From: Minisyncoccota bacterium
Lineage (GTDB): Bacteria; Patescibacteriota; Minisyncoccia; UBA6257; XYB1-36-10
NCBI GenBank assembly: GCA_041651415.1
Contig: JBAZJH010000002.1
Location: 20,474 to 84,473 of the forward strand
Reading direction: 5' to 3'
Length of the DNA: 64,000 nt
Part shown: positions 1,055 to 41,584 of the stretch, one piece after another
Layout: every line of letters starts with the position of its first letter
Numbering within the stretch: position 1 is the stretch's first letter
Notes under the pieces: generated by a model
The model's input: the letters and a program-made list of their open reading frames with translations, nothing else
What the model was told of the DNA's origin: nothing
Database searches by the model: none
Position numbers and translations under genes: made by a program

Positions 1055-2209
1055 TCACCTCCTTTCTTTACACTCAATGTGCGGCAATGCGGGACCATCA
1101 ATTTTTCCAGTAAAACCAAAAACCAACGATCTGTCCGCAAAAGAGCATTCATATCGACATTTTCCGCAACCGGTATTTTGATAGGTTTGTTGACGGATTT
1201 TATTAAGAATATCAGAACTTAACCAAATTTCTGATAAGTTATCTGATAAACAAGAACCGAGTCTCCATGATGGCTGATTAAGAAAAGGAAATGGAAAAAT
1301 ATCTCCAACAGCATCAATATAAAGAAATGAATACCCTCCTGGAGAAACAATACGTAAAACATCTTTTACAGTTTCATCGTCGCATATTTTTTTTTCAAGG
1401 AAAGTATCCAGTTCGATGTTACAATCTTCCGCGTATCTTTTAAGATCAGGTAATTTGTCGCGAAATCGATTAATGATTGCACAATATTCAGTCCAAGAAA
1501 TAAATTTCGATCTACCGATAGGAACTTGGGGTGAAATACGTATTTTTTTAAAATTATGAACGGCGCAAAATTCTATTATTTCACCCAATCGATCTACGTT
1601 TTTTTCTTGAAGAACAGTGGCTATCACTATGTTTAGCTCTTTTTCTCTAATAAGATTTATGGAACGGGTAAATAATCTCCACGCGTCTCGATTAACGATT
1701 TGATTAAATGTTTCACCAACTCCATCCAAAGATATTTGAATTCTGAAAAAAACATGAAGACACTCGATATTTTTATCAGAGAAACAAAGACCATTAGTGA
1801 GAAGATTTTGCGCAAAACCAAGTTCTTCGGCATATTTCACAAATGTCCAAAATCCTTTTCGAAAAAGCGGTTCTCCTCCGCTCCATTCAATATTAAGCAC
1901 CCCCACATCAGCTGATCGCTCGAGTAATGTCATAATTTGCTTATGAGTCATCTGTGGCGGCATTATTTTGTTATCTCCACTAAATACCGCGCAAGTTTTA
2001 CACCGTAAATTGCAAAAATTAGTAACTTGAATCTGCACTTTAATCGGAGCAGAAAATGTTTCTTTCGGATATTCCAAGTTTTTTACAATTATTGCGTCTG
2101 GAATTTCTTCTAAAATTTCTTTAATATCCGCAGGCAAAACCGAATATAATTCGCCATTTTCCATTATAAGATAAGCTTCAAGAAACGGTTCATATCGTAT
2201 TCTTCTCAT
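1055..2209 (-). CDS. Radical SAM enzyme with C-terminal SPASM-type Cys cluster
   Basis: CNLRCKTC (CxxxCxxC) near the N-terminus and a C-terminal GCGKCRYEC cluster; RBS aaggaagg upstream; 384 aa. Confidence 0.78.
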   Translation of the reverse strand: MRRIRYEPFLEAYLIMENGELYSVLPADIKEILEEIPDAIIVKNLEYPKETFSAPIKVQIQVTNFCNLRCKTCAVFSGDNKIMPPQMTHKQIMTLLERSADVGVLNIEWSGGEPLFRKGFWTFVKYAEELGFAQNLLTNGLCFSDKNIECLHVFFRIQISLDGVGETFNQIVNRDAWRLFTRSINLIREKELNIVIATVLQEKNVDRLGEIIEFCAVHNFKKIRISPQVPIGRSKFISWTEYCAIINRFRDKLPDLKRYAEDCNIELDTFLEKKICDDETVKDVLRIVSPGGYSFLYIDAVGDIFPFPFLNQPSWRLGSCLSDNLSEIWLSSDILNKIRQQTYQNTGCGKCRYECSFADRSLVFGFTGKIDGPALPHIECKERR

Positions 2210-2376
2210 TTCTTTTTTCCTTCCTTACTTTTATTTTTAAGGTCTTCCAAGATTATTTTTAAACTGCTGTTTTTAACATATTCTTAATAGTTGTTTTTGT
2301 CAATTTATGGAAAATGTGTTCAAGTTTTGTCGAATTACCACTCTTAAAGACGAGAACAATAAGGAAAAAAGGTAGG

Positions 2377-2898
2377 TTAAAATTCTCTGCCTTTTTCGCC
2401 TGACACTCCTTCTTGAAAGGGGTGTTTTATTTCAGCGCAATCGGTAGCGAGGTCGGCAATTTGAAGAAAAGAAACGGGAGCGTTTCGACCGGTAAACATA
2501 ATGTCCGTTTCTTTGGGAACTTTTTTAACAAAATCAAGAACGGAGGATTCGGAGAGAAGATTTAAAGAAAGAGCATTATTGATTTCATCAAAAACGACAA
2601 GATTGTAGGCGCCAGAGGTAGCAGCCATGGAAGCTTTTTGAAAAGTTTCTTCCGCCTTTTTTTTATGTTCCTCAATGGGAAGCTTGTCGCCTAAAATGCC
2701 GACAAAGCCAAGACCGCCTTTTTCAAAATGAAAATTTTCTCCGAAGTTTGAAAGAATTTTATCCTCCCCTGCCGGAAAATTGTCGCTTTTAATAAACTCC
2801 GCGAAAAAAACTTTGCCGCCTTGGCCTAAAACGCGAATCGCCTGTCCGATAGCGGAAGTGGTTTTTCCTTTGCCATTGCCGGTGATTATCAAGAACAT
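2377..2898 (-). CDS. cobA: ATP:cob(I)alamin adenosyltransferase (CobA/CobO/BtuR family)
   Basis: P-loop ITGNGKGKTTSAIG plus the VVFDEI and MFTGRNAP motifs characteristic of the CobA/BtuR family; 173 aa. Confidence 0.75.
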   Translation of the reverse strand: MFLIITGNGKGKTTSAIGQAIRVLGQGGKVFFAEFIKSDNFPAGEDKILSNFGENFHFEKGGLGFVGILGDKLPIEEHKKKAEETFQKASMAATSGAYNLVVFDEINNALSLNLLSESSVLDFVKKVPKETDIMFTGRNAPVSFLQIADLATDCAEIKHPFQEGVSGEKGREF

Positions 2899-2980
2899 AA
2901 AAATAAATAATATTAGAGTAGCCCTTCGACTTTACTATGTTTCGCTCAGGGACTAATAAAGATAGGTTTTGAGATTTTTA

Positions 2981-3009
2981 TTGACAAGTTTGTTAAAGAA
3001 TGCTATATT
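2981..3009 (+). promoter_or_regulatory. Sigma70-like promoter (TTGACA-17-TATATT)
   Basis: Consensus -35 ttgaca, 17-nt spacer, -10 tatatt, about 40 nt upstream of the small ORF at 3050. Confidence 0.6.
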
Positions 3010-3049
3010 TGAAAAAGAGTTTTAAACAATCAAATAAACGGAGGAGAAA

Positions 3050-3208
3050 ATGGAAAAGATAGTGAAATTAAAAATTTTTTATTCTTGTCTTTCTGCAATC
3101 GATGTAATGATAGCTCTAACGCCTGCAATAGCAGGTTCGTTAGAGCCAGTTTTTTGGGGTTTTGCGGTATTATCAGGATTATTATCAATAAATATTCCAA
3201 AAGACTAA
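3050..3208 (+). CDS. Small hydrophobic peptide (52 aa), not in the ORF track
   Basis: ATG is preceded by a ggagga RBS at 7-nt spacing, with a consensus promoter upstream and an intrinsic terminator downstream; sequence MEKIVKLKIFYSCLSAIDVMIALTPAIAGSLEPVFWGFAVLSGLLSINIPKD. Confidence 0.55.
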   Translation: MEKIVKLKIFYSCLSAIDVMIALTPAIAGSLEPVFWGFAVLSGLLSINIPKD

Positions 3209-3242
3209 AAACAAACTTCACAATTTATAAGAATTATTTGTC

Positions 3243-3280
3243 ATCCCGCGAACATTTTTATGTTTGCGGGATTTTTATTT
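3243..3280. terminator. Intrinsic terminator shared by the small peptide gene and nrdJ
   Basis: Stem tcccgcgaacat / atgtttgcggga followed by tttttatttt. Confidence 0.8.
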
Positions 3281-3291
3281 TCAAAATACTT

Positions 3292-6066
3292 TTAAGAACA
3301 GCCGCCGGAGGATTCGCCGCATTCAAGGCAGGTTTGGCAGGTGCCGGTTCGAACCATCATCCCGCCGCATTTTTTACAGACAGTGCCGGAAAATACTTGT
3401 CCGTTTTTTAGAGGAGAAGAATAAGAAACAGTTCTGATTTCTTCATTTTTAGCTTCTTTAATTTCAGCGACAGAGGGAACAGAAGCGGCATCTTTTGAAA
3501 TGGAAGCAAGATAAGAAGCGGAGGGAGAAAGGCCGAATTCAAAAAGTTCTTCCGGAGAAAGAAAGCGGAGAGCGAGATAGCGGAAAATGTAATCAATAAT
3601 GCTTGTCGCTATTTTTATTTCCGGATTGTCGGTGAAACCGGCCGGTTCAAAACGGCTATGAATAAATTTGTGAGTAAGGTCTTTCAGAGGAACGCCGTAT
3701 TGGAGCGACATAGAAATTGTGATGGCAAAAGCATCAAGGAGGCCGGAAAGAGTGCTCCCCTGCTTTGCCATTCTAATAAATATTTCCGCCGGAGCGCCGT
3801 CTTCATACATACTATAGGTGAGATAACCTTCGTGGCCGGCAATGGAAAATTTGTGAGTTTCGGAAGGACGGGTTTTCGGCAGGCGGCGGCGGAAAGGTTT
3901 TGATTCCGAAATATTTTCTTTCTGTTCGGATTCTTTTTCTTTAGGTTTCGAAGTATTGAGCGGTTGAGTGGATTTTGAACCGTCGCGATAAACGGCAAAA
4001 GCTTTAATGCCTAGTTTCCAAGCCATAAGATAAGCATCATAAATTTCTTCAACAGTGGCGCTACTATCCATATTGAAAGTTTTAGAAATGGCGCCGGAAA
4101 TAAAAGGCTGGGCCGCGGCAACCATTTTGACGTGGCCGCGCCAAGAGATGGAACGGGAGCCATTGGCCGGTTTAACAGCGCAATCAAAAATGGAAAGATG
4201 CTCTTCTTTCAAGAAAGGCGCGCCTTCAATGGTATTATTTTTTTCAATAAAAGAAACAATTTCACCGGCTTCAATTTCTGAATAATTAAGATTAAGGAGA
4301 GCATTTTTTACGCCTTGATTAACAAGCTTCATCCAGCCGCCGCCAACCAGCTGTTTCATTTTAACGAGAGAGAATTCCGGTTCGATGCCGGTTGTGTCGC
4401 AGTCCATCATAAAGGAAATGGTGCCGGTTGGAGCAAGAACAGAAACTTGCGAATTGCGAAAGCCGTTTTTTCTGCCGAGTTCCAAAGCTTCATCCCAAAC
4501 TTTGAGAGCTTCCGCAGAAAGATTAGGGTCGTTTAAAAGAGAAACATTAACGCGGCGGGAAGCATCGCGGTGTTTTTCAATAACATAAAGCATAGCATCT
4601 TTATTTTTTTCATAGCCGGTAAAAGGACCGGTGAGAGCGGAGATTTCAGCGGAAAATCGATAAGCTTCGCCGGTTAAAAGAGAAGTGACAGAAGAAACGA
4701 AAGCGCGGCCTTCTTCGGAATCGTAAGCCAGGCCTTTAGACATCAAAGCGGCGCCGATATTAGCATAGCCCAAACCAAGCTGACGGAAATTTTTGGCGTT
4801 CTCGGTTATCTTTTCTGTCGGATAACTGGAGTGGCCGACAATTATTTCCTGCGCCAAAATTAAAATATCAACGGCGTGCTTAAATTCTTTAACTTTAAAA
4901 CTGCCATCATCTTCCAGAAATTTCATTATATTCAAAGAAGCGAGATTGCAAGCGGAGTCATCAAGATGCATATATTCGGAACAGGGGTTGGAAGCGTTGA
5001 TGCGGCCGGAAACGGGGCAGGTGTGCCAATCATTAATAGTAGTGTCAAACTGAACGCCCGGGTCGCCGCAAGCCCAAGCGGCTTTCGCAACTTCCATTAA
5101 GACATCTTTAGCTTTGTGAGTTTCCGCCGCTCCCCCGCCATTCACAAATTCCGTTTGCCAATCGCCATCTTTTTCAACTTTTTTCATAAAGTCATCAGAA
5201 AGACGGACGGAATTATTAGCATTTTGAAACTGGATAGAATACCAAGCTTCATTATTCAAATCGGCCATATTATAGCCGGCTTCGGCAAGAGCTCTGATTT
5301 TCTTTTCTTCTTCGGCTTTACAGCGGATAAAATCAAGAATATCGGGATGCTTGTCATTTAAAACCACCATTTTGGCGGCGCGGCGAGTGGTGCCGCCGGA
5401 TTTAATCATGCCGGCAACAGAGTCAGCGCCGCGCATAAAAGAGACCGGACCGGAAGCGCGGCCGCCGGCGGAAAGAAGTTCATATTTAGAACGAAGAGGA
5501 GAAAGATTAATACCGGCGCCGGAACCGCCTTTAAAAATTACGCCTTCGTTTTTTACCCAATCAAGAATAGAACCCATATCATCTTTAACAGAAAGAATGA
5601 AACAAGCGGAACATTGAGGGCGTTCCACACGGCCGACATTAAACCAAACCGGACTGTTAAAACTGCCTTTTTGAAAAAGAATCAAGTGAGCGAGTTCGCT
5701 TTCAAAAATGGCGGCTTCTTCAGAACCGGAAAAATAACCGGAGGATTCTCCCCAACCGCGAATGGTTTTGACAACGCGGGAAATCATTTCTTTGGCGCTT
5801 CGCTCCCGTTCGGGAGTGCCGAGTTTGCCGCGAAAATATTTGGAGGCGGTGATATTGACGGCGTTTTCCGACCAAAATTCGGGAAATTCCACTCCCCTCT
5901 GTTCAAAAGCTTTCTTCTCTCCGGAACCGACAGCGGCATCGCGTCTTACCCAAGACACCTCTTCAAAAGGATAAGTTTCAGATTTTGAAAAAAAACGTTT
6001 AAGGTTTAAAGATTTTTCCAAAACTGATTTTTTTTTGTCGGCAACCGGAAGATTTTGAGAAGGCAT
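3292..6066 (-). CDS. nrdJ: Ribonucleotide reductase, class II (adenosylcobalamin-dependent)
   Basis: Active-site region ASNPCSEYMHLDDSACNLASLN; C-terminal CxxC...CxxC tail typical of class II RNR; 924 aa; adjacent to cobA. Confidence 0.8.
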   Translation of the reverse strand: MPSQNLPVADKKKSVLEKSLNLKRFFSKSETYPFEEVSWVRRDAAVGSGEKKAFEQRGVEFPEFWSENAVNITASKYFRGKLGTPERERSAKEMISRVVKTIRGWGESSGYFSGSEEAAIFESELAHLILFQKGSFNSPVWFNVGRVERPQCSACFILSVKDDMGSILDWVKNEGVIFKGGSGAGINLSPLRSKYELLSAGGRASGPVSFMRGADSVAGMIKSGGTTRRAAKMVVLNDKHPDILDFIRCKAEEEKKIRALAEAGYNMADLNNEAWYSIQFQNANNSVRLSDDFMKKVEKDGDWQTEFVNGGGAAETHKAKDVLMEVAKAAWACGDPGVQFDTTINDWHTCPVSGRINASNPCSEYMHLDDSACNLASLNIMKFLEDDGSFKVKEFKHAVDILILAQEIIVGHSSYPTEKITENAKNFRQLGLGYANIGAALMSKGLAYDSEEGRAFVSSVTSLLTGEAYRFSAEISALTGPFTGYEKNKDAMLYVIEKHRDASRRVNVSLLNDPNLSAEALKVWDEALELGRKNGFRNSQVSVLAPTGTISFMMDCDTTGIEPEFSLVKMKQLVGGGWMKLVNQGVKNALLNLNYSEIEAGEIVSFIEKNNTIEGAPFLKEEHLSIFDCAVKPANGSRSISWRGHVKMVAAAQPFISGAISKTFNMDSSATVEEIYDAYLMAWKLGIKAFAVYRDGSKSTQPLNTSKPKEKESEQKENISESKPFRRRLPKTRPSETHKFSIAGHEGYLTYSMYEDGAPAEIFIRMAKQGSTLSGLLDAFAITISMSLQYGVPLKDLTHKFIHSRFEPAGFTDNPEIKIATSIIDYIFRYLALRFLSPEELFEFGLSPSASYLASISKDAASVPSVAEIKEAKNEEIRTVSYSSPLKNGQVFSGTVCKKCGGMMVRTGTCQTCLECGESSGGCS

Positions 6067-6158
6067 AGTGGGTTTTTTAAATAATTTTAATTAATGCGTA
6101 CTCCCATTATAAACCAAGAATAAGAAAAGCAATGTGGAAAACGCTTAAGGGGATTTTT

Positions 6159-6188
6159 TTGACTTTTTGTCTAAAAAATAGCTATAAT
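6159..6188 (+). promoter_or_regulatory. Sigma70-like promoter (TTGACT-18-TATAAT)
   Basis: ttgact, 18-nt spacer, tataat upstream of two tandem small ORFs. Confidence 0.6.
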
Positions 6189-6243
6189 AAAAATAGAAAA
6201 ATAAAAAAACGATTCACAAATTTGAAAAGAAAGGAAGAAAAAG

Positions 6244-6348
6244 ATGAAGAGTTTTTTAAAGTTGGAGATTATCGGAATTATAGCGCTTTTGGCACTTATA
6301 ATTCTTCCATCAACAAGAGAATATATATTTTATCCAGACAGATATTAA
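6244..6348 (+). CDS. Small hydrophobic peptide A (34 aa)
   Basis: RBS aaaggaag upstream; MKSFLKLEIIGIIALLALIILPSTREYIFYPDRY; first of a tandem pair under one promoter and terminator. Confidence 0.5.
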   Translation: MKSFLKLEIIGIIALLALIILPSTREYIFYPDRY

Positions 6349-6362
6349 GGAGAAAAGTAAAA

Positions 6363-6467
6363 ATGAGAAAAATAATTTCTCTTTTTATCCTTTATGCGGG
6401 CATTGTTGTTGTTTCTATTATCGCAGTTCTTTTAATGCTTTTTAGATTTGACCAGGAAGATGATTAA
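6363..6467 (+). CDS. Small hydrophobic peptide B (34 aa)
   Basis: RBS aaggag sits 8 nt upstream of the ATG; MRKIISLFILYAGIVVVSIIAVLLMLFRFDQEDD; followed by an intrinsic terminator. The 111-aa track ORF 6132..6467 is probably an over-extension of this gene. Confidence 0.55.
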   Translation: MRKIISLFILYAGIVVVSIIAVLLMLFRFDQEDD

Positions 6468-6490
6468 CTTTCGTCTAATAACGAAGCAAG

Positions 6491-6518
6491 TCCGCCTAAC
6501 ATTAGGCGGGATTTTTTT
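6491..6518 (+). terminator. Intrinsic terminator
   Basis: ccgccta / taggcgg stem followed by ttttttt. Confidence 0.75.
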
Positions 6519-6643
6519 GAAAATTAAAAAATAATAAAGCAAGAATTGATTTGACATTAAAGATTATTTGTATTATACTATAAAAAGTTCTTCATAAATA
6601 AAGAAGAGCAAAATAAAAACTCGCAGGATGCCTAAGGAGGCGC

Positions 6644-6952
6644 ATGATGAGTAATCATTCTTTGGTTTGTAGGTTGATTGATTTAGGATTTTTTTCGGCG
6701 CTCGGGACGACAGAGTATCCCGGCGGTGGGAATGTAGGAAGTTATGTTGAAAAAGGAAAACCTTTCACGTGGGATAAAAACAACGGCGTGACCGTTGTTT
6801 ACGATGAGAGAGGATGGCCGTGGATCGGAAGAAGTCTTGAGCCACCTCTTCAAGGAGAAAATTATTATTTCGCTTTGACTCGCGGGGCGTATGTCCCCCA
6901 CTCAAACGACGGCGGACACTTCATTCAAGAAGTTTTGCCGACTCTTTTGTAG
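6644..6952 (+). CDS. Hypothetical protein (102 aa)
   Basis: Strong RBS aaggagg; ORF followed by a terminator; no recognisable family. Confidence 0.6.
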   Translation: MMSNHSLVCRLIDLGFFSALGTTEYPGGGNVGSYVEKGKPFTWDKNNGVTVVYDERGWPWIGRSLEPPLQGENYYFALTRGAYVPHSNDGGHFIQEVLPTLL

Positions 6953-6960
6953 CTTCTTCA

Positions 6961-6998
6961 TTCCCGCAAGCTTAATTGCTTGCGGGAATTTTGTTTTT
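6961..6998 (+). terminator. Intrinsic terminator
   Basis: ttcccgcaagc / gcttgcgggaa stem followed by ttttgttttt. Confidence 0.8.
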
Positions 6999-7025
6999 AA
7001 ATTTTCAAAAGATTTATTAAGGAAA

Positions 7026-7043
7026 CTCCGACCGAAGTCGGGA
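7026..7043. repeat. CTCCGAC-loop-GTCGG hairpin motif (copy 1 of at least 6)
   Basis: ctccgaccgaagtcggga; same motif at 9249, 11278, 23372, 35685, 63825. Confidence 0.6.
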
Positions 7044-7116
7044 TGCTCAAATTTTTGAATAAGTTTATAAATAAACTTATTCAAAATTTGGCAAATTTGG
7101 TATAATATAGAACAAA

Positions 7117-9231
7117 ATGATTTCTTTAGACACGCCGCTTGAAAAAATCTACGGCATCGGGCCGAGATTTATCGCCAAGTTCAAAAAACTTGAGATATTA
7201 ACGGTGAAAGATTTAATCCGACATTTTCCTTTTCGTTATGAAGATTTTTCCAGAATTTCTTCAATTGCCGAACTTAATCCCGGACAACAGGCGACAATCA
7301 AAGCTTATGTAAAAAGAGTGAGCGAAAGACGAAGCTTTAAAAAAAGAATGGTGATAGTAGAAGCAAGATTAGCGGACGAGACGGGAGAAGTGAAGGCGGT
7401 GTGGTTCAACCAGCCGTATGTAAAAAATATTCTGACGCTCGGAAAATTTTTTAACTTTTCGGGGAAGGCCGGGACTTTCGCGGGAGAAACGGTTCTTTCC
7501 AACCCAATGTATGAAGCGGTCGGGCAAGCCGGGCCGAAGCATACAGGGAGGCTTGTGCCGATATATTCGGAAACAAGAGGAATAACTTCAAAAGGCATTC
7601 GATATATCATTAAGCCGGTTTTGGAAAATCTGGAGGAAATGGAAGATTTTATTCCGGATGAAATTTTAGACGAAAACAAATTGCCGGACATAAACGAAGC
7701 GATAAGAAATATCCATTTCCCCTCCTTAATAGAAGACGCCGATTCAGCCAGAAAAAGATTCGCCTTTGAAGATTTGTTTTTGCTTTCCATTTTAAATCTG
7801 GGAAAAAGAGCGGTGCTTTCAAAATTGAAATCAATAGCCATAGAAAGTGACCCGCAGTTCATGAAGGAAGCGGAAAAAATTTTGCCTTTTTTAATGACAG
7901 CGAGCCAAAAGAAATGTTTGGAAGAAATTTTAGGCGACATGGGAAAGCCAACGCCGATGAATAGACTGCTTCAAGGAGATGTGGGAAGCGGCAAAACAGC
8001 GGTGGCGGCCTTAGCGGCGCTAGCTGCCGCAAAAGGAGGAATGCAGGCGGCTTTTATGGCGCCGACAGAAGTTTTAGCGCGCCAGCATTATGAAACAATC
8101 AAAAGGCTTTTTGCAAAAACAGAAATAACTGCCGGACTCATTACGGGAGCAAACAAAGGAAGAATGTTTTTTGGAGAAGGACTGGAAGCGGAAATTTATA
8201 AAAAAGAAATAAAGAAAAAAACGGAAGAAGGGAAAGTGAAAATTTTAATCGGAACACATTCCTTGATTCAAGAAGACGTGAAGTTTGAAAATTTGGGAAT
8301 TGTGATTGTGGACGAACAACACCGATTCGGAGTGGAACAAAGAGCAAAATTAGCCGGAGGAGAAAAAAAGAAAAAGGCGCTCCCCCATTTTTTATCAATG
8401 AGCGCCACGCCAATTCCGAGAACTTTGACTTTAACCATCTTCGGAGATTTAAATCTTTCAACAATCGACGAGATGCCGAAAGGCAGAAAGGAAATTAAGA
8501 CAAGCGTAGTGCCGCCGGAAAAAAGAGAAGAAGCTTATGATTTTATAAGAAAAGAGGTGAAGCAAGGCAGACAGGTTTTTGTGGTTTGCCCAAGAATAGA
8601 AGAAAGCGAAGCTGTCAGCGCCGGACAAGAGCTTTTTCAGATGGAGACGGCTTCCGTAAAAAAAGAATACGAAAAATTATCAACACAAATTTTTCCGGAT
8701 TTAAAAGTGGCAATGCTCCATGGAAAATTAAAAGCCAAGGAAAAAGAAGAAGCGATGAATAAATTCAAAGAAGGGAAAACGGATATTTTAGTTTCCACTT
8801 CGGTTATAGAAGTGGGAGTGGACGCGCCAAACGCAACCGTTATGATGATAGAAGGAGCGGAGAGATTCGGACTCGCCCAGATTTATCAATTTCGAGGGAG
8901 AGTGGGGCGGGGTGAACATCAGTCCTATTGTTTTTTATTTACCGAATCCACAACGGATAAAACAACGGAAAGATTAAAAGCAATACTGAAAGCAAAGAAT
9001 GGATTCGAGCTGGCGGAAATGGATTTGGAAATAAGAGGGCCGGGACAATTTTTAGGCAAGAAGCAGACAGGATTGCCAGACACAGCAATGAAGTCGCTGC
9101 AAAACATTTCCATAATAAAGGAAGCAAGAAAGGCGGCGGAAAAAATATTAAAACAGGATATAACGCTTGTTTCTTTTCCAAGATTAAGAGAAAAAATAAA
9201 ATCGTTCAAAAAAGAAATCCATCAGGAATAA
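7117..9231 (+). CDS. recG: ATP-dependent DNA helicase RecG
   Basis: Wedge-domain N-terminus and helicase motifs GDVGSGKT and VVDEQHRFG; 704 aa. Confidence 0.92.
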   Translation: MISLDTPLEKIYGIGPRFIAKFKKLEILTVKDLIRHFPFRYEDFSRISSIAELNPGQQATIKAYVKRVSERRSFKKRMVIVEARLADETGEVKAVWFNQPYVKNILTLGKFFNFSGKAGTFAGETVLSNPMYEAVGQAGPKHTGRLVPIYSETRGITSKGIRYIIKPVLENLEEMEDFIPDEILDENKLPDINEAIRNIHFPSLIEDADSARKRFAFEDLFLLSILNLGKRAVLSKLKSIAIESDPQFMKEAEKILPFLMTASQKKCLEEILGDMGKPTPMNRLLQGDVGSGKTAVAALAALAAAKGGMQAAFMAPTEVLARQHYETIKRLFAKTEITAGLITGANKGRMFFGEGLEAEIYKKEIKKKTEEGKVKILIGTHSLIQEDVKFENLGIVIVDEQHRFGVEQRAKLAGGEKKKKALPHFLSMSATPIPRTLTLTIFGDLNLSTIDEMPKGRKEIKTSVVPPEKREEAYDFIRKEVKQGRQVFVVCPRIEESEAVSAGQELFQMETASVKKEYEKLSTQIFPDLKVAMLHGKLKAKEKEEAMNKFKEGKTDILVSTSVIEVGVDAPNATVMMIEGAERFGLAQIYQFRGRVGRGEHQSYCFLFTESTTDKTTERLKAILKAKNGFELAEMDLEIRGPGQFLGKKQTGLPDTAMKSLQNISIIKEARKAAEKILKQDITLVSFPRLREKIKSFKKEIHQE

Positions 9232-41381: not shown

Positions 41382-41410
41382 TTGACAAACTATTTATAGT
41401 ATGATATAAT
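41382..41410 (+). promoter_or_regulatory. Strong sigma70 promoter with extended -10 (TTGACA-17-TGaTATAAT)
   Basis: Consensus hexamers, 17-nt spacer, TG motif; about 300 nt upstream of tyrS. Confidence 0.75.
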
Positions 41411-41584
41411 TAAAAAAGAAAGATGAAGAAAGGAAAAGGAAATGATAGTTATTATCGACATTTCCACAGGGGTTGTTATAACTCCTTGGGATCTTAAATA
41501 GATTCTGTGGAAATTGTCCGTTTATAACGGACCGGGGGCTGGTTTCCCTGGGAACAGAAAAAACCAATGGAATTGGTTGGAAAA

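Follow-up and report, generated by a model that had tools for sequence, protein, structure and literature searches.

Small proteins of the bacterial membrane have been described mainly in association with larger ones. The characterised bacterial small membrane proteins commonly bind larger membrane proteins, and both a narrow phylogenetic spread and single-helix regulation of larger membrane proteins are typical of the class, SafA and UgtL/UgtS being narrowly distributed examples (PMC12648545). Genome searches for type I toxins look for proteins of fewer than 70 amino acids (aa) that have a single transmembrane segment and, at the C-terminus, a short tail in which charged or aromatic residues are frequent (PMC2887945; PMC12648545), and leaderless bacteriocins have a net charge of +4 to +8, an isoelectric point above 9.7, a grand average of hydropathy (GRAVY) near 0 (about -0.4 to +0.2) and amphipathic saposin-like folds (PMC6131525). 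Here we describe two adjacent genes, pep1 and pep2, each encoding a 34-aa hydrophobic peptide, in a stretch of 64,000 nucleotides (nt) of contig JBAZJH010000002.1, which is referred to below as the window. The source is a metagenome-assembled genome of Candidatus Paceibacterota (Patescibacteria/Paceibacterota), placed by a scan of a genome collection with the ribonucleotide reductase protein. The pep1-pep2 unit is found at the same site, between a class II ribonucleotide reductase gene and recG, in two further species, referred to here as L029 and L099. Judged from sequence, both small open reading frames (ORFs) are very probably real genes and the 111-aa ORF annotated across them is very probably an artefact. 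As to what the two peptides do, we favour, with about even confidence and by analogy with described proteins, two small membrane proteins whose translation is coupled and which work jointly in the membrane.

The unit, and the annotated ORF that overlies it, are made up of the following parts.

6132-6467, plus strand: annotated 111-aa ORF (NCBI MFA5173125.1, WC435_01850), an out-of-frame read-through of pep1 merged with pep2
6151-6177, plus strand: 27-nt block GGATTTTTTTGACTTTTTGTCTAAAAA that contains the -35 hexamer, invariant in the three species and back to back with the divergent reductase promoter region
6159-6188, plus strand: sigma-70-type promoter TTGACT-18-TATAAT, with 11 of 12 consensus matches
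6231-6236, plus strand: Shine-Dalgarno sequence of pep1, AAGGAA, 7 nt 5' of the ATG, with AAGGAG at the same place in L029 and L099
6244-6348, plus strand: pep1, 34 aa, MKSFLKLEIIGIIALLALIILPSTREYIFYPDRY, net charge +1
6347-6352, plus strand: Shine-Dalgarno sequence of pep2, AAGGAG, sharing its first two bases with the end of the pep1 stop codon
6363-6467, plus strand: pep2, 34 aa, MRKIISLFILYAGIVVVSIIAVLLMLFRFDQEDD, net charge -1
6491-6518, plus strand: intrinsic terminator, an 8-bp stem with 5 GC pairs and a 4-nt loop (hairpin 6491-6510) followed by the T-run ATTTTTTT

A first-pass annotation of this DNA had proposed the promoter with its 18-nt spacer, two ribosome-binding sites with aaggag in a 14-nt gap, two 34-aa peptides of net charge +1 and -1, and a clean terminator, and each of these is present at the positions listed. 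The promoter has counterparts at the orthologous sites, TTGACT-18-TAAAAT in L029 and TTGACT-18-TAAAGT with a TG upstream in L099. Matches of 11 out of 12 occur seven times in the window against 3.4 expected from shuffles, so that the promoter match alone is not rare. The 27-nt block is the best-conserved DNA of the locus; DNA identity in the coding parts is about 64%. The block has a single copy in the window, and the idea that it is a repeated regulatory element was rejected on that ground. It carries GAC-N5-GTC around the -35 hexamer and could be a shared operator, and the divergent promoter region from 6100 to 6185 is about 93% identical to that of L029, far above the peptide genes. From the promoter to pep1 runs an A-rich leader of about 50 nt. 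The gap from pep1 to pep2 is 14 nt in the window (6349-6362), 26 nt in L029 and 23 nt in L099, and AAGGAG is kept before pep2 in each. Because the Shine-Dalgarno sequence of pep2 overlaps the stop codon of pep1 in the window, and the second ribosome-binding site lies on or just after the first stop codon with gaps of 14-26 nt, translational coupling of the two genes is suggested. The terminator hairpin folds with a z-score of -2.8 to -3.8, and L029 and L099 each have another hairpin with a U-run at the terminator position. Intergenic small ORFs that are hydrophobic and led by a Shine-Dalgarno sequence number three in the 64 kb, two of them being pep1 and pep2. The third, at 41390-41467 on the minus strand, encodes 25 aa (MEMSIITIISFSFLHLSFLIISYYK) and stands beside a perfect 12/12 promoter match on the opposite strand (41382, plus).

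Conservation in relatives had been named by the first-pass annotation as the check on its proposal, and both ORFs are in fact kept in two other species. In L029, which was found by scanning the genome collection with the reductase, the reductase fragment is 94% and RecG 91.5% identical in protein sequence to the window. Its pep1 orthologue has 32 aa (MKNFLKLAILGILALFAIVFSSSARNRMYYSD) and its pep2 orthologue has 35 aa with a GTG start ((V/M)RKIIILMILWIGTIIISIIAILLMLLKFEESEKK); each has its own ribosome-binding site, and the intergenic site also holds the identical -35 block. The other species (L099/L100), which was found through a homologue of orf102, the gene that follows the unit in the window, has a reductase 79.5% and a RecG 72% identical to those of the window, in the same gene order. 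Here the two pep genes (4626-4858) were called independently as two 34-aa genes, MKKFFKMIAMGVLALLAIIFCPSARSYMYFPDEY and MRKTIVSMILWVGVGIFWIITILLSILGRDSEEK. The two ORFs with their ribosome-binding sites, the -35 block and a terminator are therefore kept in all three species, and chance does not explain such conservation of the whole unit. Two other genomes, L097 and L098, are 100% identical to the window at the locus and add no information. The first-pass annotation had also suspected that the gene track merged pep2 into a dubious 111-aa ORF. This suspicion is borne out, as the frame of that ORF contains stop codons in L029, and in L099 no merged ORF is called and the two 34-aa genes are called separately.

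Among more distant reductase loci most have ftsZ upstream of the reductase gene, and the pair is not carried. In L001, whose reductase is 69% identical, the divergent layout of the reductase gene and recG is kept without peptide ORFs. The L001 region (8000-8330, minus strand) has a promoter-like site, TTGACA-17-TATCAT, and a weak hairpin with a T-run, with no small hydrophobic ORFs, and may encode a short untranslated RNA or show what the site was like before the peptide unit arose. A metagenome scan with RecG returned only relatives of 57% identity or less, none with the peptides, and no relative was found among viral contigs. Scans of all six peptides against Pfam, NCBIfam and PHROGs gave nothing above threshold, and exact look-ups of pep1 and pep2 in large protein databases returned no record. 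The merged ORF of the window itself was the sole match both in two word-indexed profile searches of 5.8 billion proteins and in a full phmmer run over 1.84 billion representatives. These protein-database negatives are weak for 34-aa peptides, because about 50% identity over 34 aa falls below significance; the two 34-aa peptides of L099 are present as singleton clusters in a 15-billion-protein collection, yet were missed by the word-indexed and HMMER searches. On their sequences, pep1 and pep2 appear to form a new family that is restricted to a narrow lineage and is of a known kind, that of small membrane proteins.

The pattern of substitution is that of coding DNA. Peptide identity to the copies in the window is 38-53%, with flanking proteins above 91% between the window and L029. 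Insertions and deletions inside the ORFs comprise whole codons only, and the untranslated parts have insertions and deletions of 6-31 nt. Variable alignment columns fall on codon positions 1, 2 and 3 in the numbers 36, 19 and 42 (chi-square p = 0.012); identity is highest at the second position and lowest at the third, and what is conserved at the second position is the T that hydrophobic codons carry. Ratios of non-synonymous to synonymous substitution (dN/dS) are 0.15-0.50 for pep1 and 0.41-0.71 for pep2, with dS of about 0.6-2.2, and 0.04-0.14 for the flanking genes; in the coding frame the ratio is below 1 in six of six comparisons. Where residues differ, 31 of the 43 alignment columns keep the hydrophobic or polar class. 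These alignments indicate that both ORFs are under relaxed but real purifying selection, mainly for hydrophobicity, basic N-termini and short tail motifs.

In the order window, L029, L099, pep1 carries a net charge of +1, +3 and +2 and pep2 one of -1, +2 and +1. GRAVY of the six peptides ranges from 0.71 to 1.38, the best 19-residue Kyte-Doolittle hydropathy from 2.3 to 3.05 and the uncharged runs from 16 to 25 residues; the most hydrophobic 18-residue segments have an Eisenberg mean hydrophobicity of 0.80-1.01 with a hydrophobic moment of 0.07-0.26. By these measures both peptides are of a predicted transmembrane type and not amphipathic. AlphaFold2, run on a single sequence in which pep1 and pep2 were artificially fused, gives both as helical with a predicted local distance difference test score (pLDDT) of 78-95, which is to be read as helical propensity only. 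The proposal of a two-gene unit for membrane-type peptides is supported, and hydropathy and the predicted helices agree with it. Prediction of helices and of amphipathicity had also been put forward as a check; helices are predicted, and the hydrophobic moment is low.

The peptides differ from one another in layout, and paralogy between them was rejected (hhalign probability 1.8%). From an MRK start pep2 runs into an uncharged transmembrane segment of 24-25 residues and ends in a short tail that is acidic or of mixed charge, and it is, by this predicted topology, a classic membrane anchor with the N-terminus inside. In pep1 a basic MKxF[LF]K start precedes a hydrophobic core of 14-15 residues with invariant G11, A14, L15 and A17. 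The tail has invariant S23, R25 and D32 and conserved aromatics, the aromatic part ending in [PS]-D, and between the core and R25 stands PST, SSA or PSA. A type IV pilin-like N-terminus (G(-1)/F(+1)/E(+5)) was considered for pep1, whose sequence in the window reads S-F-L-K-L-E, and was rejected: position +5 has E in the window but A in L029 and I in L099, the -1 residue is S, N or K, and Pfam N_methyl gives no match. The generic criteria for small membrane proteins (up to about 50 aa, one predicted membrane-spanning helix, coding conservation) appear to fit both pep1 and pep2.

The coupled membrane pair that we favour could work as follows. One mRNA of about 320 nt would be made from the strong conserved promoter, and pep1 and pep2 would be produced from it in similar amounts through translational coupling. 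Both would be inserted in the cytoplasmic membrane with a cytoplasmic N-terminus and an external C-terminus, and there might form a small hetero-oligomer whose role would be to bind, and to tune or stabilise, a larger membrane protein or some property of the membrane. If so, the pair would be neither a secreted antimicrobial nor a self-poisoning toxin. Several points weigh against this reading. The role of the pair as a regulator or accessory subunit would be an argument by analogy, and no candidate gene for a partner protein was found near the pair. With PST, SSA or PSA behind a hydrophobic core no longer than 14-15 residues, pep1 resembles a cleavable signal peptide as much as an anchor. The unit is found in three species only, and the selection statistics come from about 200 aligned nt. 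Finally, dN is much higher in the peptides (0.29-0.62) than in the flanking genes (0.03-0.22), and such fast divergence would also suit toxins, exported peptides or genes of marginal function.

The order of genes at the locus is the reductase gene, pointing leftward, then the pep1-pep2 unit, orf102 and recG, all three pointing rightward. The genes beside the pair are as follows.

3292-6066, minus strand: class II ribonucleotide reductase gene, divergent to the pep1-pep2 unit
6644-6952, plus strand: orf102, with its own promoter (6551-6579) and its own terminator (6960-6989)
7117-9231, plus strand: recG, 3' of orf102

This is a housekeeping context, and orf102 is absent in L029. In the flanks of the pair in the window, L029 and L099, no immunity, export (ATP-binding cassette, or ABC, transporter), accessory or receptor genes were found. 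A functional link between the pair and orf102 was considered and rejected, as orf102 has its own promoter and terminator, is missing in L029 and occurs elsewhere in unrelated contexts. The gene for the class II (B12-dependent) reductase lies in the stretch 1055-6066, minus strand, in which a CobA/CobO/BtuR-type adenosyltransferase gene and a radical S-adenosylmethionine (radical-SAM) gene lie behind it on the same strand. The same arrangement of reductase, adenosyltransferase and radical-SAM genes is found in L099, and it resembles a compact gene cluster for B12 handling and nucleotide reduction. The large orf102 family comprises hypothetical proteins of about 100 aa, with 165 matches at E <= 0.01, and all matches with a named source are from Paceibacterota/Parcubacteria. 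Its C-terminal motif, G-A-Y-V-P-H-S-N-D-G-G, is invariant or nearly so. For orf102 there is no match in Pfam, NCBIfam or PHROG, an exact look-up in large protein databases gave no record, and its AlphaFold2 model (pLDDT 79) has no fold match in the PDB. The neighbours of the family vary by genome and include RarA/MgsA, YchF and an IS200-type transposase. Sub-threshold Rfam matches at 6933-7116, on the orf102 terminator and recG leader (RsaJ, 30.5 bits versus a gathering score of 100; idnO; ncr1175), are most likely terminator-hairpin noise.

For a membrane-active pair the first-pass annotation had left three options, and their fortunes differ: small membrane regulators survive best, a type I toxin-like pair stands in peptide shape only, and a bacteriocin falls on charge, hydrophobicity and the lack of leader, immunity and export. 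It is also conceivable that the locus has no protein function, the DNA either giving rise to a small non-coding RNA or decaying, with ORFs that have survived by chance in AT-rich sequence, and this we regard as quite improbable. The restriction to three species would suit such a locus, as would a DNA divergence of 36% against 12-15% in the flanking genes (window-L029 pair) and a promoter block that is conserved far better than the ORFs. When random substitution was simulated at the observed divergence, each ORF stayed open by chance in only 17-31% of simulations per comparison; the joint retention, however, has a probability of about 0.002, and the ORFs, their start codons and their ribosome-binding sites all persist in three species. 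The codon-periodic substitutions, the retained hydrophobic class and the dN/dS below 1 in all six comparisons likewise speak for coding sequence, and an Rfam scan found no matches within the unit, whose whole-transcript fold is unremarkable (z = -1.6). If the peptides are made, one or both of them might depolarise or permeabilise the membrane of the producer, as a type I toxin or a holin would, with a hidden RNA or the partner peptide restraining the effect. We consider this unlikely, even though the size and shape of both peptides agree with the published criteria for type I toxins and the peptides are intergenic, lineage-restricted and fast-evolving. The layout of pep2 (basic N-terminus, transmembrane segment, acidic tail) resembles that of Fst, with similar hydrophobicity values. 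No antisense promoter is conserved across the three species; promoter-like sites on the antisense strand are weak (9/12) and at non-homologous positions in the window and L029, and L099 has none. Nor are the ribosome-binding sites sequestered beyond the transcript average, their unpaired probability being 0.33-0.82 against an average of 0.41-0.44 as predicted in silico, and a toxin expressed from a strongly conserved, near-consensus promoter and good ribosome-binding sites would kill the cell constitutively. Since pep1 and pep2 are not paralogues, this is not the tandem-duplicated locus typical of type I systems. Neither Pfam, NCBIfam nor PHROG gives a match to Fst, Ldr, Hok or similar. The Fst/Ldr signature consists of a conserved Trp behind the transmembrane helix and, after it, a charged cluster (PMC2887945); the pep2 helix is followed by R/K-F or G-R, with no Trp. 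The likeness to the Fst/Ldr type thus lies in a length of about 30-35 aa, a basic N-terminus, one transmembrane segment, a charged C-terminal tail and an intergenic position (PMC2887945). The difference is that two distinct cistrons stand here on one mRNA, whereas type I systems are duplicated toxin/RNA modules.

Secretion of the products has to be weighed in two forms. That pep1 and pep2 are a leaderless two-peptide or a class IIb two-peptide bacteriocin, secreted to kill competitors, is suggested by their layout, in which neighbouring genes for peptides of about 34 aa share an operon and a strong promoter and show no obvious leader, and in this they are like enterocin L50A/B and MR10/DD14/7A-7B, which are likewise encoded by two adjacent co-transcribed leaderless peptide genes of similar length. 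Those peptides, however, are strongly cationic, amphipathic and mildly hydrophobic and have export and immunity genes (PMC6131525), whereas pep1 and pep2, with a net charge of -1 to +3, a GRAVY of 0.7-1.4, uncharged stretches of 16-25 residues and a low hydrophobic moment, are near-neutral, of transmembrane type and flanked by housekeeping genes. A class IIb assignment would call for a double-glycine leader and a GxxxG motif, and neither occurs in the six sequences; no Pfam or NCBIfam family matches, and no immunity, ABC-transporter or accessory gene is nearby. The bacteriocin readings fail because the peptides are near-neutral and of low amphipathicity and because immunity, export and receptor genes are missing from the neighbourhood, and we regard them as very improbable. 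An export of pep1 alone has more in its favour and is nevertheless an unlikely account of the locus. The N-terminal 24 residues would in that case be a Sec signal peptide, and a tail of 8-10 residues rich in aromatics (REYIFYPDRY, RNRMYYSD and RSYMYFPDEY are the candidates) would be exported as a signal or effector, with pep2 as a membrane partner for processing, sensing or protection. The three regions of a signal peptide can be recognised in the basic MKxF[LF]K, the 14-15-residue core and the helix-breaking small residues PST, SSA or PSA before the invariant R25. The tail is also about as conserved as the hydrophobic part, S23, R25 and D32 being invariant and the aromatics kept. In Gram-positive peptide signalling (Phr, SHP and PrgQ types), short precursors carry the mature peptide at the C-terminus, and pep1, with a signal-peptide-like part and a conserved 8-10-residue tail, is like Phr, SHP and PrgQ/iCF10 in this respect. 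It differs from them in that no receptor or exporter gene is adjacent and the cleavage motif varies by species, and pep2 has no counterpart there. L029 alone obeys the -3/-1 rule cleanly (S-S-A|R), the window having P-S-T and L099 P-S-A; no gene for an RRNPP or Rgg regulator, a histidine kinase or a peptide exporter is adjacent, and AlphaFold2 gives a single helix over residues 2-29 in the artificial fusion. The fuller version of this idea, in which an aromatic peptide of 8-10 residues, R-x-x-[IM]-[FY]-[YF]-[PS]-D, is cut from pep1 and secreted, with pep2 as its membrane-bound partner, is more doubtful still. Those Patescibacteria that have been studied are attached to host cells, and if this version were true the secreted tail of pep1 could mediate cell-cell or host recognition; to our knowledge no ribosomally made peptide that serves as a signal or effector has yet been described from Patescibacteria, and this system would be the first.

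Genome annotation systematically overlooks small membrane proteins, and in the candidate phyla radiation they are almost entirely unexplored. This locus offers a clean, conserved case: a highly reduced genome carries two genes absent from its annotation, the promoter ahead of them is strongly conserved, and the entry for the 111-aa ORF can be corrected. A peptide pair that is retained in so small a genome probably has a useful role in the envelope, and the envelope is the compartment of host interaction. The coupled membrane pair that we favour for pep1 and pep2 can be set beside MgrB, SafA, UgtS, AcrZ, CydX and KdpF. It differs from these proteins in that the family scans show no sequence similarity between them and pep1 or pep2, and from known small membrane proteins in that no target gene lies in the operon or its neighbourhood and two unrelated small peptides are paired with each other and not with a large partner. 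Like those six, both peptides have fewer than 50 aa, a single hydrophobic helix and short charged flanks. Small membrane proteins are also often narrowly distributed, frequently missed or mis-annotated and sometimes bicistronic, as in ugtSL (PMC12648545). In its architecture the pep1-pep2 unit departs in nothing from known small-protein biology.

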